Assembly: GCA_903898645.1 (NCBI GenBank)
Contig: CAIUGE010000037.1
Location: 2,055-66,054 of the forward strand
Origin: Oligoflexia bacterium
Lineage (GTDB): Bacteria > Bdellovibrionota > UBA1018
Direction of reading: 5' to 3'
DNA: 64,000 nt
Shown here: piece after piece, positions 7,793-58,246 of the stretch
Layout of the letters: each line of letters starts with the position of its first letter
Position numbering within the stretch: the first letter of the stretch is position 1
The notes under the pieces: generated by a model
What the model was told of the DNA's origin: nothing
Seen by the model: only the letters and a program-made list of their open reading frames with translations
Databases searched by the model: none
Program-made: the position numbers and the translations under genes

Positions 7793-8742
7793 TTGCAGGT
7801 GGTGGTACGGGGGGGCATCTTTTTGCAGCCCTTGCAATTGCTGATCATATGAAAGCCCAGGGCGTCGAGGTTGTGCTAGTAGGTGCATCGCGAGGTATAA
7901 AAAATGGATTCCAATCCTATAGTTTAGCCATAGGGCCGATGAACCGTGTTTCATTGAAGCAAAAGCTCAATACTCTTTTTGTGAAATTACCCTACGCGCT
8001 CATCCAAGCAGCTCGAATTTTTCTCCATGAGAGGCCTGATGCTGTACTTGGTGTCGGGGGCTATGCGTCCTTTCCTTGTCTTTTGATCGGCATTTTGCTG
8101 CGGAAAAAAAGTGCAGTCCTTGAGCAAAATAGGTGCATGGGGATGGCTAATAGGACCCTAGCACGCTTCGTTGACTGTGTGTTTGCCTCGTTTCCCGATG
8201 TGCCCGGGACTATCTGGACTGGTAATCCAGTGCGATCGACGATACATCCACTGCCGTCATCAACAGGGCGTACGCTCCTCATACTTGGAGGGAGTCAGGG
8301 CGCGAGGGGTCTGAATGCGATGATTCTGCGACTTCTGCCAAAACTGACTGGATGGCATATTATGCACCAGACAGGGCGTGATGCCGTCACAAGAGAAAAC
8401 TATGAGGCGTTACCTTTTTTTGATAACATGCAGGAGCGTTATGCTGCGGCAACGATTGTGATTTCACGCGCTGGTGCATCAACTATTTTTGAGCTTGCGC
8501 GTGTTGGGCGGGCAGCTATCTTAGTGCCTCTTCCAACTGCAGCTGATAATCATCAAGAAGCAAATGCTCTTTATTTAGTTGAAAAAGGAGCTGCAAAGCT
8601 TGTGCATCAAGACGATGATGAGGCTTTACTGCAGGCTTTAGACGCGCTTACTGACGATACATGTCGTCAGGTTATGGAGCAGCATATAAGGCAACTTGAT
8701 GGGCAGGCTGAGGCAGCTATTTTTAAAGGACTTTTTTTATGA
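7729..8742 (+). CDS. murG: UDP-GlcNAc:undecaprenyl-PP-MurNAc-pentapeptide GlcNAc transferase
   Basis: VLIAGGGTGGHLFAALA N-terminal motif is present. The true start may be the GTG near 7783. Confidence 0.88.
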   Translation: MSRSASIGGFVEYSSNIKKVLIAGGGTGGHLFAALAIADHMKAQGVEVVLVGASRGIKNGFQSYSLAIGPMNRVSLKQKLNTLFVKLPYALIQAARIFLHERPDAVLGVGGYASFPCLLIGILLRKKSAVLEQNRCMGMANRTLARFVDCVFASFPDVPGTIWTGNPVRSTIHPLPSSTGRTLLILGGSQGARGLNAMILRLLPKLTGWHIMHQTGRDAVTRENYEALPFFDNMQERYAAATIVISRAGASTIFELARVGRAAILVPLPTAADNHQEANALYLVEKGAAKLVHQDDDEALLQALDALTDDTCRQVMEQHIRQLDGQAEAAIFKGLFL

Positions 8743-51081: not shown

Positions 51082-52135
51082 GATTTATCGTTATATTTTA
51101 AGTGAGATCAGCGGCGTTTTCTTTGGCGCGCTTATTTTTATTGTCTTCATTCTCCTGATGTTTCAAGTTCTGAGACTTTCGGAATTTTTTATTGTCAATG
51201 GCGCAAAAGCATCACTTTTAGCACAGGTAGCAATTCATCTCTGTTTGTCTTTTTTGCCAACAGCACTACCATTGGCATTTCTTATTGCTATTTTGACAGC
51301 TTTTGGACGTCTTTCTGGGGATTCTGAGCTTATTGCACTGCGTGCATGTGGCGTGAGTGGCCTCCAGCTTGCGTTACCTGGATTTGGTTTTTCCTTATTT
51401 GTGATGCTCGTGACTTTTTTTGTTAATCAGCACTTAGTTCCTTGGGGTGAGAAACAGGCAAAAATCGCGCAGGTAAAAATCTCAAATTCCCGTGCTGTTC
51501 AGGCAATTAAGCCGGGAACTTTTACGGAAGGTTTTTTTGATCTTTTGATTTTTGCGGATAAAGTTGATCACGAACGGTTATTTAGAGTTTTCATCTATGA
51601 TGGGCGGCAGGCAAAAAATCCCATGACCTATGTTGCCCGTGAGGCTGAGATTATTCCAGTTAAATCACATTCCGAGCTTGGGGCTGCTATTATGTTGCGT
51701 CTGCATGATGGCAGCTTGCATCACAATAATATGCATGAGTTTAGCTATGAAAAGGTGGATTTTACTACCTACCTGCTTCATTTGCAAATTCATGAAGGTA
51801 AGGAAGGCGCTATGCTTAAGCCGAGCATGCTGAGTGGTCATGAGGTACACATGCGACTACGTGAGCGCCCAATCCTTATTGAGTATTGGAGACGTATTGC
51901 CACTGCTATCACGCCAGTTCTTTTCGTCCCTATTGGTGTTGGCTTTGGCTCTTACCGTACGAGAACAGCCCGTTCTGGTGCGATCCTTATTGCACTCCTT
52001 GTCATGAGTGTCTATTGGACGCTTCAGACCTGGAGTATTGGTCTTGCACGCGATTCCTTCCCTCCGTTTCTCGCTATGAATATACCGAATGTGGCTATAT
52101 TATTGATCGGTCTTCTTGGTCTCTTGCGGACGTGA
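51071..52135 (+). CDS. LptF/LptG-family LPS export permease
   Basis: MPTRIYRYILSEI N-terminus is typical of YjgP/YjgQ. 6 TM segments plus a periplasmic domain. Confidence 0.6.
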   Translation: MPTRIYRYILSEISGVFFGALIFIVFILLMFQVLRLSEFFIVNGAKASLLAQVAIHLCLSFLPTALPLAFLIAILTAFGRLSGDSELIALRACGVSGLQLALPGFGFSLFVMLVTFFVNQHLVPWGEKQAKIAQVKISNSRAVQAIKPGTFTEGFFDLLIFADKVDHERLFRVFIYDGRQAKNPMTYVAREAEIIPVKSHSELGAAIMLRLHDGSLHHNNMHEFSYEKVDFTTYLLHLQIHEGKEGAMLKPSMLSGHEVHMRLRERPILIEYWRRIATAITPVLFVPIGVGFGSYRTRTARSGAILIALLVMSVYWTLQTWSIGLARDSFPPFLAMNIPNVAILLIGLLGLLRT

Positions 52136-52963
52136 TGGGAGTGGTCCAAAAGGCCGATCATCGCTGCATAGTGTGTCACCCAGAGTGAGTGTTGGAATGC
52201 CTGATGGTGTTGATGTTACTTGCATATGATCTGCCATCAGGACATAGCTGCCCCCACGGACACTGACGCTGAGAGCTTCTGCATCAGAAGACTGAAAGCA
52301 AATATGTTTTACAGCCTTGAGGACGAGTGCACGTCCAGCACGGACAATAAACTTGCGCGCTGGACGATCATCAATCTGGTAACGCACCCAAACATCTTCA
52401 TGCATCTTGAATGCAAGCTTATAGGTCACAACGTTTGGGTCAAGTCCTGCACCTGAATCAAGGGGGTCTGCGGGTACGGGTATGACCACAGGGATTGGGC
52501 TTGGCGATGGGCTTGGTAATGGTATATGGAGTTCTTGAAGTTTCTCGATATTGCTTTTCTTGTGTTTCTGAAGCGACGGGCGGAGTATGAGCATTGCTCC
52601 CCCGCCTAAGATCAAGAAACTGAAGATAGCGATGGAGAGAATAAAACGATGCTGTTCGCCTTCTTTGCGTTCAAATGCATAGCCACTGTGGCCTGCTTCT
52701 CGATTCGGGCGCTCTGCAGAGCGCAGCTCAATATAGGGATCGAAGCGTGCAAGGACTGCTCGGGTATCAAGTCCTAAGAATCGAGCATAGGATGTTACAA
52801 AGCCGCGGACAAAGGTCCTTGCTGGTAATTCGGCATAATGATCTGATTCGAGTGCATGCAGGAGGCGTACTCCAATTTTTGTTGCTGAAGCTACCTGCTC
52901 AATAGAAAGCTGTCTTTCTTCACGTTCATGGCGAAGAAAATCACCTAGGGATTCTTGATTCAT
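52100..52963 (-). CDS. rodZ: Cytoskeleton protein RodZ-like (HTH_XRE + TM + C-terminal domain)
   Basis: N-terminal HTH region ...LPARTFVRGFVTSYARFLGLD is present. Confidence 0.7.
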   Translation of the reverse strand: MNQESLGDFLRHEREERQLSIEQVASATKIGVRLLHALESDHYAELPARTFVRGFVTSYARFLGLDTRAVLARFDPYIELRSAERPNREAGHSGYAFERKEGEQHRFILSIAIFSFLILGGGAMLILRPSLQKHKKSNIEKLQELHIPLPSPSPSPIPVVIPVPADPLDSGAGLDPNVVTYKLAFKMHEDVWVRYQIDDRPARKFIVRAGRALVLKAVKHICFQSSDAEALSVSVRGGSYVLMADHMQVTSTPSGIPTLTLGDTLCSDDRPFGPLPSRPQETKKTDQ

Positions 52964-53733
52964 GGAAGCTCCTTGAGCTTTTCCATTGCTTGATCTGCAT
53001 GCTCCGGGTAGAGTTTTTGAATTTCTAAAAATGTTTTTCGTGCAAGTTCAAATTGTTTATTTTTGGTCAATGCAATGCCAAGTGCAACTTTTGCATCCCC
53101 GATCTTCGCGCATCCGCGTATGGACGCTTGCTGGTAATTGCGAATTGCATCCTTGAACGCCTCTGCCCGGAGGGCGATATGCCCAAGGTAGTAATGAGCC
53201 AAACACGCCTTGTTGGGTGAGGCCACAAGAGCCTCTTGGAGAAATTTTTTTGCCTCGGCATCATGCTCAAGACGGTAATTGATCACACCCAGGTTGATCC
53301 AAGCCTTAAAGCTATCACGATATAAATGGTCCTTAGTGACGCTCAGGAGATCAACTTGAGCATCCTGGTAGCGTCCAAGATCCATAAGGATTTTACCACG
53401 TGTGACTTTGGCTTCTGTATAGCTTGGTGCAAGTGAAAGCGCCTTATTCACGTGGAGGAGGGCGCTTTCATAATCTCTCTTGCCATGCAGAGCGATCGCT
53501 TCAGAATGGTAGATTTCAGGGAGTTCAGGATCAAGTGCTTTGGCCTCGCTGAGGGTCTGGAGTGCGCCAACGCCATCGCCTTCCATAAGGGAGCTATTTG
53601 CAATATCAACAAGGAGGCGCGCTTTTTGATGAGCACTGAGCTGTTTAGGTGGTGACACGCAAGCGACGAGCAGTAGAAGGTAGTACAAAAAGGCCTCCTG
53701 TTTCAACATGATGTGTTTGAGGAAAGAAATCAA
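52960..53733 (-). CDS. TPR-repeat lipoprotein (PilW/PilF-like)
   Basis: Lipobox-like LLVACVS is present. It has multiple TPR repeats and lies adjacent to rodZ. Confidence 0.5.
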   Translation of the reverse strand: MISFLKHIMLKQEAFLYYLLLLVACVSPPKQLSAHQKARLLVDIANSSLMEGDGVGALQTLSEAKALDPELPEIYHSEAIALHGKRDYESALLHVNKALSLAPSYTEAKVTRGKILMDLGRYQDAQVDLLSVTKDHLYRDSFKAWINLGVINYRLEHDAEAKKFLQEALVASPNKACLAHYYLGHIALRAEAFKDAIRNYQQASIRGCAKIGDAKVALGIALTKNKQFELARKTFLEIQKLYPEHADQAMEKLKELP

Positions 53734-54720
53734 TAATCAAGATGCTTGTGAGTGAGAATCCATGGGTAATAAGCATGGATGCATCCTTTGCAAAGGCAAT
53801 AGGGTCACATCCAATCAGTATAAAAGCTGAAATACTATCAAGATGCTTGAGAATGCAGGCAAGATCGCCACTGAGGCCAATGCGTGGGGGGTCGGCAATG
53901 ACAAGGCATGCATCATGTGGAGGGATCTTCCGTAAGGTCTTGCTGATGGGGCCTGCAATAAAGGTGCGATTTGCTTCCTGATCTTGTGGTACCGCCAGAT
54001 CGAGGCAGTAAGTATGCTTCACGAGACTTGTGATTTTATGCGTTAAATTTCCGCTCCCTCCATACAAGTCACAGCAAATTGTTTCGGGACTTATAAAGTC
54101 TGCGGCTTTGGTAGCTATCCACTGCTGGAGGACTTCATTTGCCTCTTGATTGATTTGGTGAAACGGCGGCGCCTGGCCAAGAATTTTCTCGCCCAGGTGG
54201 ACAGTGGGCTCTGTATGGAGACTTAAATTGCCAAGATGCACCTGGAGCGATTCATGCAGAACAGGGCATTCGTCTATAGCAATGACATCATGAGATCCTG
54301 CCGCATGAAAGCCATAGCGTCCATCGCTTCTGCGGTGGAGCTGTGCACGTGTACGGTATTTCCATGGTGCTAATGCAGGGTGGCATTCAACAGATGCAGG
54401 AGTCACCTTGCGGCGGGCCAAAGCATCTAGGACAGATCTTTTTTTCAGGGCAAACTGGTGCTCATAAGGAAGTGTCTGGAGTTGGCACCCACCACAGGAG
54501 CCAAAGTGAAGGCATCGCGGGGTTTGGCGAATTTCTGATGGTTGAATGATGTTCAGAAGCTCTGCCTCACAAAAACGTTTCTCAACGCGTGTGATGCGAG
54601 CGCGCACCTGATCGCCAGGAACAGTCAAGGGGATGAAGGTTACCATGCCATGTGTACGTGCGACGCCTTTACCCTCAAAGGAAAGATCAAGAATCGTGAA
54701 ATCTGCCTCTTCGCCCAGGT
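53645..54720 (-). CDS. rlmD: 23S rRNA (uracil-C5)-methyltransferase RlmD/RumA family (TRAM + Fe-S + MTase)
   Basis: TRAM domain ([17 protein letters not shown]) and cluster motif [13 protein letters not shown] are present. The start is uncertain; the track ORF runs to 55009, which would overlap lepA. Confidence 0.7.
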
Positions 54721-54763
54721 GTCTGGTGCAGGGTGGCTCAAGATCTGGTACGCTGGGTGCCAC

Positions 54764-56560
54764 ATGCCCAAAAATATTCGAAACTTTTGTATTATTGCTC
54801 ACATCGACCACGGTAAATCCACCCTTGCTGATCGCCTTCTTGAAGCAACCGGTACTGTAACGGCCCGGGAGATGGAGGCGCAGTTTTTGGACAGTATGGA
54901 TCTTGAGCGTGAACGGGGTATCACGATCAAGGCCCAAAGTGTACGCCTCTCCTACCAAGCACAAAATGGTTCCCAGTATATACTGAATCTGATCGACACT
55001 CCAGGCCATGTTGATTTTACTTATGAGGTTTCTCGGTCCCTTGCTGCTTGTGAGGGAGCAATTCTCGTTGTGGATGCATCCCAGGGAGTAGAAGCTCAGA
55101 CTCTGGCGAATGTTTTTCTGGCCCTTGATATTCAGCTGGAGGTTTTTCCTGCAATTAATAAAATTGATCTGCCATCAGCTGACCCTGATCGTGTTTTAGC
55201 TGAGATTGATTCTACAATTGGCTTGGTCGATACATCACATGCAGTTCTCTGTAGTGCAAAATCCGGTATTGGGATTAGCGAGATCTTAGAAGCGGTTGTG
55301 ACATACTTCCCTGCTCCCCGAGATACAGATTTCGAGCCTTTACGGGCTTTGATTTTTGATAGTTGGTTTGATCCTTACCAAGGGGTTGTTGCTTTATGCC
55401 GCGTTTTTGATGGTGTGATTACCAAAGGTGCAAAGATTCGTCTTTTCCATGTCGGATGCGTTTTTGAGGTGCAGCGCGTCGGGGTTTTCTCTCCAAAATT
55501 TACAGAAGTTTCGTCACTTGCAAGTGGTGAAGTGGGTGCTGTGATCTGTGGCATCAAAGACGTTCGTGATATGAAAGTTGGCGACACTATTATGGCGGCC
55601 GATGCCCAAGGCATTGAGCCTCTTGCGGGCTTTAAGGAAGTCAAGCCTATGGTCTTTTGCGGGGTTTATCCTATCAATGCAGAAGATTATAATCACCTGA
55701 AAGAGGCGCTCGAAAAGTTACAGCTTAATGATGCAGCTGTTAGTTGGGAGCCTGAAACATCCAATGCCTTAGGGTTTGGCTTTCGTTGTGGGTTCTTAGG
55801 TCTTTTGCACATGGACGTCGTCCAGGAAAGACTTGAGCGGGAGTACGGGCTGAATTTGATTACAACAGCTCCTTCAGTTGTGTACCGCGTTGTGACAACA
55901 GATGGAGCTGAACTCCACATTGATAATCCATCAAAATTGCCTGATCTTACTAAGATTGTTCGTATTGAGGAGCCGATGATCAGGCTGACACTCCATTTGC
56001 CTTCCGTGTATGTGGGGGCCGTTATGAGCCTTTGCAATGATAGACGGGGGACGCAGGAGAAGTTGGATTATCTGGGCACGGATCGCGTCACACTTGTCTA
56101 CGGTATGCCACTCAATGAGATGGTCTTTGATTTTTATGATCGCCTAAAAAGTGCAACAAAGGGCTATGCTTCCATGGACTATGAGCTCTCAAGCTATGAA
56201 GTATCAGATCTTGTGAAGCTTGATATTCTTATCAATACAGAGCCTGTTGATGCTCTTTCCCTCATCATTCATCGGGATAAGGCAGCACATCGTGGGCGAG
56301 AATTAGCAAAAAAAATGAAGGAGCTGATCGATCGCCAGATGTTTGATATTTCCATTCAAGCAGCTATTGGCACAAAGATCGTTGCACGTGAAAGTATTTC
56401 GGCATTGCGTAAGAATGTGACGGCCAAGTGCTATGGGGGGGATATTAGCCGTAAACGTAAACTTCTGGAGAAGCAAAAAGAGGGTAAGAAGCGCATGAAG
56501 CAAATTGGGTCTGTTGAAATCCCTCAAGAGGCTTTTTTGGCTGTCTTAAAAGTTGAATAA
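54764..56560 (+). CDS. lepA: Elongation factor 4
   Basis: [20 protein letters not shown] is present. The C-terminal LepA domain is present. Confidence 0.9.
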
Positions 56561-57142
56561 ATGCGGTTTTTTTATACAGTCCTGCCTCTCGTGCTAGCGT
56601 CGATGTGCGCTCTTATGGTTACCTGTTTTTTTGGGTCCGTCTATAAGCTCACAACAGACGCCTTTTTTCCAACTTTTTTACCTGGAGATGTTATCTGGGT
56701 GTCAAAACATATGGTGTTTGAACGTGGCCATGTGATCGTTTTTGAGCACCAGGGTGCGCCTCTCGTTCGGCGCATCCTTGCTTTACCAGGTGACAGGGTT
56801 ATGAGAGATGCATCGGGTCTGCGGGTCAATGGCAGGCTTCTTCATGGTGCAGGCAAAAAACTCGGACAATTAATGTGCTATCAGGAATTGGCCTACTGCG
56901 TCTGTGAGAAGGATGTGAGGCCGGAGCCGTCCTTTCGTGTCCCTTCGGGCCATTTCTATGTAGCACCAGATTTGCGCACTGCATCCAATTCGTTTTTGCT
57001 TCCCATGGAGAGTGCTCTTGGTGAAGCCAAGACAGTCCTTTTCTCACTCCAGATAGCCAGTGCATGGATCCAAGAGGAAGAGAAATTTTTACGACATCGC
57101 TTTTTCGTTCCACTTCCGTCCTTGACTTGTGCTGGTGGTTGA
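56561..57142 (+). CDS. Signal peptidase I homolog with substituted catalytic residues
   Basis: It aligns to SPase I box B (DSMYPTL) as DAFFPTF and to box D (VKRIIGLPGD) as VRRILALPGD. Ser is replaced by Ala and Lys by Arg. Confidence 0.55.
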   Translation: MRFFYTVLPLVLASMCALMVTCFFGSVYKLTTDAFFPTFLPGDVIWVSKHMVFERGHVIVFEHQGAPLVRRILALPGDRVMRDASGLRVNGRLLHGAGKKLGQLMCYQELAYCVCEKDVRPEPSFRVPSGHFYVAPDLRTASNSFLLPMESALGEAKTVLFSLQIASAWIQEEEKFLRHRFFVPLPSLTCAGG

Positions 57143-57156
57143 CTAGAGTTTCAGGC

Positions 57157-57940: not shown

Positions 57941-58192
57941 ATGACCAGACTTTTGTTCGCATTACTCGCAGCCACAATGATGGTATCCTCAAACGTTTCA
58001 TTTGCTGTGGAAGGCGAAGCAGCGCCAGCGCCAGCGCCAGCGCCAGCACCAGCAGTAGCTGAGTCAGCACCAGCACCGGTATCTGAGCCAGCACCAGCAG
58101 GAGAAACAACAGAGCACAAAAAACATCATGGCAAGAAGCATTCGAAGCATAAGAAGCCGCATCATTCAGAAGCAGCAGCAGCAACACCGTAG
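57941..58192 (+). CDS. Small secreted protein with (AP)n repeats and a His/Lys-rich C-terminus
   Basis: RBS AAGGAGA is present. Signal peptide is present. HKKHHGKKHSKHKKPHH is present. A terminator-like hairpin follows. Confidence 0.6.
   Translation: MTRLLFALLAATMMVSSNVSFAVEGEAAPAPAPAPAPAVAESAPAPVSEPAPAGETTEHKKHHGKKHSKHKKPHHSEAAAATP
58023..58056. repeat. (GCGCCA)5-like hexanucleotide microsatellite encoding APAPAPAP
   Basis: Directly visible in the sequence. Confidence 0.8.
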
Positions 58193-58217
58193 TCATTATT
58201 CCATGATACGTGGTAGA

Positions 58218-58246
58218 CCCTCAGGTGAAAGCCTGGGGGTTTTTTT
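58218..58246 (+). terminator. Rho-independent terminator-like hairpin (ccctcagg-tgaaag-cctggggg) followed by T7
   Basis: Read from the sequence. One mismatch in the stem. Confidence 0.45.

Follow-up and report, generated by a model that had tools for sequence, protein, structure and literature searches.

Could a gene that occupies the lepB position, directly downstream of lepA, still encode a working signal peptidase I when neither residue of the catalytic dyad is left in it? This question is raised by a gene of the peptidase S26 family near the end of a 64,000-nt stretch of DNA, the whole of which is called the window below. The gene and the features that surround it are as follows.

54764–56560, plus strand: lepA (elongation factor 4), 598 aa, with the full Pfam architecture and its true start at MPKNIRNF
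56561–57142, plus strand: S26 (LepB-like) gene without either catalytic dyad residue, 193 aa
57157–57798, plus strand: DUF7986-type gene, 213 aa, starting 14 nt past the S26 stop and placed in the same transcription unit
58215–58242, plus strand: first strong terminator-like hairpin downstream, a 12-pair stem followed by a T run

The stop codon of lepA (TAA, 56558–56560) abuts the ATG of the S26 gene in the same frame, that is, the spacer is 0 nt. A terminator scan from lepA to the DUF7986 gene gave no terminator-like site of note on either side of the S26 gene. The DUF7986 gene is probably co-transcribed with lepA, and the hairpin at 58215–58242 is likely the end of a unit that comprises lepA, the S26 gene, the DUF7986 gene and a small ORF. 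The LepA of the window is 83–84% identical to LepA from many Bdellovibrionota assemblies, and the DUF7986 protein is 79–84% identical to the product of the relatives' PF25948 gene; the local Pfam copy gave 0 matches for the 213-aa protein itself. The DUF7986 protein is cytoplasmic and tightly conserved, and its gene follows the lepA block in every relative, even in those without the S26 gene.

Several smaller observations concern the same region. The mechanically called lepA ORF starts at 54542, 74 codons 5' of the conserved start at 54764, and the extension (54542–54763) is overlapped by a mechanically called TRAM/tRNA-methyltransferase ORF on the minus strand (53645–55009). The methyltransferase genes of relatives encode about 372–386 aa, which indicates a shorter gene and a divergent promoter region between the methyltransferase gene and lepA. 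The small ORF (57941–58192, plus strand, 83 aa) begins like a signal peptide, contains a (Pro-Ala)n run and ends in a tail rich in His and Lys, and relatives carry ORFs of 71–96 aa without Pfam match at this site. A promoter-like site at 57122–57149 was rejected, being not above chance and too near the next ATG to be meaningful. Besides lepA, the DUF7986 gene and the small ORF, the neighbours of the S26 gene are glycosyltransferase genes; neither pilin nor sortase genes were found near it, and an active paralogue is not adjacent either.

That the protein belongs to the signal peptidase I fold can be seen from both profiles and structure prediction. Pfam PF10502 (Peptidase_S26) matches residues 7–143 with an E-value of 1.3e-14 and 55 bits (cut-off 22.9), and TIGR02227 gives 51.1 bits, above its equivalog cut-off of 47. 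An AlphaFold2 model built with 87 homologues (pLDDT 85.2, pTM 0.79) consists of a single helix at the N-terminus and, after it, a domain rich in beta structure, and a Foldseek search of the PDB with this model returned E. coli signal peptidase I structures as the best matches, with Streptococcus pyogenes SipA (4n31, rank 14) and Staphylococcus aureus SpsB among the further ones. The helix corresponds to the following feature.

56564–56632, plus strand: N-terminal membrane anchor, residues 2–24, from the AlphaFold2 helix (2–24) and the Kyte-Doolittle profile

The 19-residue Kyte-Doolittle maximum is 2.23 at residues 7–25 and no other 19-residue stretch exceeds 1.6, so that this is the sole hydrophobic segment. 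On the evidence of the profiles and the predicted fold, the ORF is a genuine, intact relative of signal peptidase I. An earlier note, made from the sequence alone, had described a 193-aa LepB homologue in the lepB position after lepA, and the two profiles, the fold and the TAA-ATG junction agree with it.

The correspondence of residues was established by three independent alignments, namely a phmmer alignment of the S26 ORF with the signal peptidases of PDB entries 4me8 and 4nv4, an alignment of a family profile (described below) with E. coli LepB (E=5.5e-43), from which the E. coli numbering used here is taken, and a BLASTP alignment with the canonical LepB of the metagenome-assembled genome (MAG) FG-1. 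In all three, Ala34 (GCC, 56660–56662) lies under the nucleophilic Ser (E. coli S90) and Arg70 (CGG, 56768–56770) under the general-base Lys (E. coli K145). The replacement of both dyad residues, as first read from the sequence, is thus confirmed, and both profile cut-offs are passed with no Ser/Lys pair at the catalytic positions in any of the alignments. The motifs of the protein are listed here.

56642–56689, plus strand: box B equivalent YKLTTDAFFPTFLPGD, with Ala34 for Ser, from the alignments and column statistics
56756–56794, plus strand: box D equivalent APLVRRILALPGD, with Arg70 for Lys and with Arg71 at the invariant R146
56873–56914, plus strand: family-specific hairpin Cys-x2-Glu ... 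Tyr-x-Val-Cys (MCYQELAYCVCEKD)
56951–56995, plus strand: degenerate box E HFYVAPDLRTASNSF, in place of GDNRxxSxDSR
57062–57106, plus strand: C-terminal motif AWIQEEEKFLRHRFF, with F176, R180 and F181 retained

Around Ala34, box B reads TTDAFFPTF, compared with the canonical IPSGSMxPTL; Thr32 stands at the position of E. coli S88, and Phe35 takes the place of a family-invariant Met. Box D reads LVRRILALPGD, compared with the canonical YIKRxxGLPGD. Box E reads PDLRTASNSF, in which the equivalents of D273 and R275 are kept, and possibly that of S278, those of D280 and R282 are lost, G272 is replaced by Pro and N274 by Leu. The Cys hairpin stands where E. coli LepB has the large domain II and is absent from the canonical outgroup; its Cys pair, C106 and C115, probably forms a periplasmic disulfide. 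The C-terminal motif matches both the family pattern W..(R/K)(I/F)R(F/W)xR(M/F)F and the C-terminal LRLSR of E. coli LepB.

In E. coli LepB, replacement of S90 by Ala, or substitution of K145, abolishes activity, and the S26 protein of the window is, by its sequence, not expected to be active. Could it be a peptidase that uses other residues, with Thr32 (the S88 position) or Ser142 as the nucleophile and Arg70 as the base? The protein does score above the TIGR02227 equivalog cut-off, and Thr32, Arg70, Arg71, Asp137, Arg139 and Ser142 are at, or close to, positions of the active site. However, the family conserves no other candidate nucleophile: two residues ahead of the nucleophile its members have S, T or N, and the nucleophile column itself holds A, S, T or V. 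Moreover, Pro stands at the G272 position, at which a side chain of any kind would collide with the catalytic lysine (PMC4049620), and the dyad-less homologues SipA and SpsA show no peptidase activity (PMC4049620, PMC12414704). A peptidase with such a rebuilt active site is therefore highly improbable, and a role of this gene as the housekeeping peptidase is very unlikely.

An error of assembly or sequencing that hides a normal lepB would be another way out, given that the window comes from a metagenome-derived contig and the protein is the single member of its cluster. This is barely credible. The independent contig L005, seen in 4 samples and belonging to the same population, is 100% identical to the window over 51328–56680, which includes S26 codons 1–40 and with them Ala34. 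The protein departs from canonical LepB along its entire length, not just at two codons, and the Ser is missing from orthologues in many assemblies too.

Then, where is the working signal peptidase? Signal peptidase I is generally essential, and it is an antibiotic target. Motif scans and six-frame profile scans over the 64-kb window and all fetched flanks gave no second S26 homologue. A related genome, MAG FG-1, whose LepA is 82% identical to that of the window, belongs to class UBA1018, proposed as Bdellonasia (PMC13200544), and its supplementary KEGG table lists two K03100 genes, 01039 and 00671 (PMC13200544). Gene 01039, located between pyrB and lepA, is by synteny and NCBI name P0280, a protein of the lepA-linked type with IPTPAMRPTL in box B, that is, with Ala at the nucleophile position, and with GDLRTQS in box E. 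Gene 00671 adjoins lptF/G, def, fmt and rpe and is fully canonical, with IPSGSMIPTL, YIKRVIGVPGD (YYIKRVIGVPGD) and GDNRDFSNDSR (GDNRDFSNDSRFWG). The canonical protein P0380, which is 40% identical, comes from another contig, where its gene likewise has rpe-fmt-lptFG as neighbours. The 64-kb window contains none of the rpe, fmt and lptFG genes that adjoin the canonical copy.

The earlier note had placed a functional lepB elsewhere in the genome. For FG-1 this is now demonstrated by gene 00671; for the window's own genome we infer a canonical lepB from the essentiality of the enzyme together with the canonical copy of FG-1. Canonical Ser/Lys S26 genes were also seen at two further loci. The one at L010 6001–6840 lies between rpe-fmt-lptFG and bioF-bioD-bioA and matches the canonical LepB locus of FG-1; the one at L011 6001–6831 lies between murJ and rnc-era-recO. 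Both carry the C-terminal motif that is common to the lepA-linked family.

Is the loss of the nucleophile a peculiarity of the window, or does it belong to the family? A lepA-linked S26 gene was found in more than 110 Bdellovibrionota genomes and contigs. The exhaustive search of the representative proteins with the S26 ORF gave distant matches only (best E=1.9e-11, 36% identity), many of which likewise have no Ser at the nucleophile column and share further motifs. A family profile built from this Ser-less, motif-sharing subset matched more than 115 proteins with E<1e-50, and every one of them is annotated as 'signal peptidase I'; where organism names are given, they are Bdellovibrionota. Among 114 lepA-linked members, the nucleophile column holds Ala in 85 (75%), Ser in 14 (12%), Thr in 7 and Val in 6, and the Lys column holds Lys in 101 and Arg in 13. 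A neighbour-joining tree with canonical enzymes as its root requires 20 or more changes of state in the nucleophile column, which is a rough neighbour-joining/Fitch estimate. These columns indicate a family of lepA-linked copies in which the nucleophile has been lost repeatedly and the loss of Ser is the norm.

What the family keeps is the groove. The equivalents of F84, I86, P87, M91, L95, D142, I144, R146, D273 and R275, whose pocket roles we take from the E. coli structure literature, are 80–100% conserved in the 114 members. C106 and C115 are both present in 113 of 121 family sequences, E109 is present in 116 of 121, and the hairpin in about 93%. A conserved groove without a conserved nucleophile is typical of a protein that binds, not of one that catalyses. 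All members still score 120–132 bits on the TIGR02227 equivalog, which is why they are named 'signal peptidase I'. A literature search for an inactive LepB in Bdellovibrio or Bdellovibrionota, or for a description of a distinct family of this kind, found none.

In the wider alignment, Ser is absent at the nucleophile column in 46 of 151 S26 sequences (149 non-self representative matches, the query and the S26 protein of L002). The Ser-less representative matches include P0124, P0164, P0213, P0217 and P0223, and several of them have an otherwise canonical box E and fall outside the lepA-linked family. Ser-less S26 homologues thus appear common in metagenomes, in a sample that is biased by the query's own Ala.

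The gene order around lepA in the relatives can be summarized as follows.

L002 and L008: lepA, S26, pyrB, pyrC, carA, DUF7986, small ORF, heptosyltransferase (GT9)
L006: lepA, S26, pyrB, pyrC, after which the contig ends early
L012: as L002 and L008, with an acetyltransferase gene inserted after lepA
L007: as L002 and L008, with carA as the only pyr gene
Window: lepA, S26, DUF7986, small ORF, heptosyltransferase, without pyr genes
L003 and L004: lepA, DUF7986 and onwards, without the S26 gene

The S26 gene of the window therefore lies where the family gene is found, after lepA and ahead of the (pyr)/DUF7986 block. In its nearest relatives, the nucleophile column holds Thr in L002 and L006 and Ala in L007 and L008. 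The pyrB-pyrC-carA genes lie between the S26 and DUF7986 genes at L002 8463–11861, L008 7484–10886 and L012 9682–13142, and partial blocks are found at L006 7441–9671 (pyrB-pyrC) and L007 7478–8725 (carA alone), with none in the window or in L003 and L004. In one lineage a GNAT acetyltransferase gene is located between lepA and the S26 gene (L012 7865–8401, L013 4182–4718). In L003 and L004, whose LepA is 83% identical to that of the window, a mere 110-nt spacer separates lepA from the DUF7986 gene (7798–7906 in both), and a search for a deletion scar between these two genes revealed no S26 remnant. The stretch of the operon between the S26 and DUF7986 genes is a hotspot of gene loss or relocation, and the absence of the S26 gene at lepA in L003 and L004 means that it is dispensable at least in their lineage.

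Although homologous and syntenic, the copy of the window lies far outside the envelope of its family. At a LepA identity of 82–84%, other genome pairs have an S26 identity of 49% (range 40–59, n=30), compared with a mean of 32% (range 26–37) for the pairs of the window at a LepA identity of 80–84%. A family HMM built without the window protein gives it 63.3 bits, compared with 200–355 for the members and 158–177 for the canonical outgroup. It keeps 57% of the family columns with a conservation of 85% or more, whereas the family mean is 94%, the family minimum 67% and the outgroups range over 64–73%. Its terminal branch is the longest in the neighbour-joining tree of the family (0.451 against a median of 0.172). 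The near-invariant residues M35F, G136P, W160L, P31T and K70R (family residue first) are lost, six deletions and five insertions separate it from the family, all of them in frame, and it is shorter than all typical members. A word-indexed search with the protein found itself alone, as a single cluster member; the closest representative matches in the exhaustive search are 36–42% identical, and a scan of the genome collection for closer homologues of the ORF gave a single distant Chloroflexota-type locus. Judged by these comparisons, it is the most divergent member of the family known.

Such divergence could mean that the gene is decaying, that is, that a dispensable lepA-linked paralogue is drifting to loss and its open frame is a functionless leftover. 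The long terminal branch, the low orthologue identity at the same LepA distance, the loss of near-invariant residues, the short protein and the deletion already seen in L003 and L004 all speak for this reading, as does the fact that a conserved-column retention of 57% is about that expected from unbiased substitution. However, the frame contains no stop or frameshift, and when the genes of three relatives were evolved by neutral drift to the required extra divergence, only 1.5–2.2% of the simulated sequences stayed stop-free. All 11 of the 11 indels are in frame. In every 48-codon segment, the codon log-odds are highest for the annotated frame (overall 0.135, compared with 0.244 ± 0.099 for other genes), and the five other frames are negative, so that an in-frame coding signal extends over the whole length. 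The tight translational coupling to lepA is kept, and the AlphaFold2 model is confident. In addition, C106, E109, C115, D137-L138-R139, S162 and the C-terminal motif residues F176, R180 and F181 are present, and among these the family-specific Cys and Glu residues are retained. The open frame and the in-frame indels argue against plain decay, which we regard as rather unlikely, if by no means negligible.

The groove bears on the other side of the question. The R146-D273 pair and R275 are retained in the window copy, whereas the groove-residue equivalents P87, M91, L95, D142 and G272 have been replaced (P87T, M91F, L95F, D142P, G272P). These changes make an ordinary binding of signal peptides by this copy less supported, and it may no longer share the function of its family. 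The earlier note had offered either a signal-peptide binder or a degenerating gene; the second is weakened by the frame and the indels, when understood as plain decay, and the first by the groove. Its reading as a pseudo-peptidase was broadly right but incomplete, for it missed both that the loss of the nucleophile is the norm of the family and that the window copy is an outlier within it.

We therefore favour, over terminal decay and with a probability of roughly 60%, the reading that the gene is still expressed and encodes a membrane protein, LepB-like but non-catalytic, on which the constraint has been relaxed or has shifted. The ORF would give a membrane-anchored protein whose signal peptidase I fold faces the periplasm and which would not cleave, with the Ser nucleophile replaced by Ala and the Lys base by Arg. 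It would be the local orthologue of a lepA-linked paralogue family of LepB-like proteins in class UBA1018 and neighbouring groups, in which the nucleophile appears to have been lost repeatedly and the peptide-binding groove and the structural salt bridge to have been kept. Since the family keeps the groove but loses the nucleophile, it most likely acts by binding and not by cutting; it may be a natural 'substrate trap' of the S90A type, which would hold or escort exported proteins or signal peptides at the inner membrane, and the cleavage of signal peptides would be left to a separate canonical LepB encoded beside lptF/G-def-fmt-rpe. The copy of the window would be translated from the lepA operon with its frame open, after losing the Lys and after a remodelling of the S1/S3 pocket positions. 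A bolder version, which we put forward tentatively and hold to be doubtful, is that the family forms a conserved natural class of substrate traps, that is, non-cleaving inner-membrane receptors co-expressed with LepA that, for example, delay or route secretion; the remodelled pocket of the window copy would then reflect a new ligand and not decay.

How does this compare with known systems? With LepB (MEROPS S26A; E. coli, PDB 1B12/1T7D) the window protein shares the fold, the N-terminal anchor, recognisable boxes B, D and E, the R146-D273 pair with R275, the C-terminal motif and the location of the gene directly downstream of lepA. It differs in Ser90 to Ala, Lys145 to Arg, G272P, N274L, M91F and L95F, in the missing D280/R282 equivalents and in the short Cys-bridged hairpin in place of the large domain II. 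With the lepA-linked family (for example P0280), it has in common the gene neighbourhood, the Cys-x2-Glu...Cys hairpin, a box E of the (G/P)DLR form, the C-terminal motif and the Ala. It is set apart by 63 bits compared with at least 200, by the loss of the Lys (R in 13 of 114), of the invariant Met and of the groove Pro and Gly, and by its six in-frame deletions.

Two inactive homologues are documented in other bacteria. S. aureus SpsA has neither catalytic residue, shows no activity in assays and is encoded adjacent to spsB (PMC12414704); whether it is a pseudogene product or functional is debated, with a possible role in phagosomal escape (PMC12414704). Like the window protein it is an S26 homologue without the dyad, and it coexists with the active SpsB as the Ala-type copy does with the canonical one in FG-1. 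However, SpsA is Gram-positive and next to the active spsB, whereas here the copy is located at lepA in an organism that the heptosyltransferase and LptF/G genes nearby indicate to be a diderm, and the active copy of FG-1 is distant; moreover, the SpsA family and the window protein are not closely related in sequence. S. pyogenes SipA (PDB 4N31) has the signal peptidase fold with a dyad of Asp/Gly and a retained peptide cleft (PMC4049620), and it is non-catalytic yet essential for pilus polymerisation, for which a chaperone-like binding role has been proposed (PMC4049620). What it has in common with the window protein is the signal peptidase I fold with the dyad replaced. SipA belongs to Gram-positive pilus/sortase islands, unlike the window gene with its neighbourhood free of pilin and sortase genes, and the profile match between them is weak (E=1.5e-8 over about 40 residues). 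The case of the window would work like SpsA and SipA, with a dyad-less fold in addition to a real enzyme; the protein is a member of neither family.

As to annotation, the window protein and more than 100 relatives pass TIGR02227, are named 'signal peptidase I' and are assigned to K03100, and most of them have no nucleophile, so that pathway reconstructions take a presumably inactive copy for the enzyme. A probably non-catalytic paralogue holds the ancestral lepA-lepB position, and the active gene would lie elsewhere, as it does in FG-1. The repeated flips of the nucleophile on a conserved groove provide a natural series of what becomes of a peptidase fold after cutting stops. The documented inactive homologues, SpsA and SipA, are both Gram-positive, and a conserved diderm family would widen this picture. 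The interest therefore lies more in the family, as a possible natural substrate trap that is systematically mis-annotated as the enzyme, than in the copy of the window, which is best viewed as a derived and possibly fading member of it.
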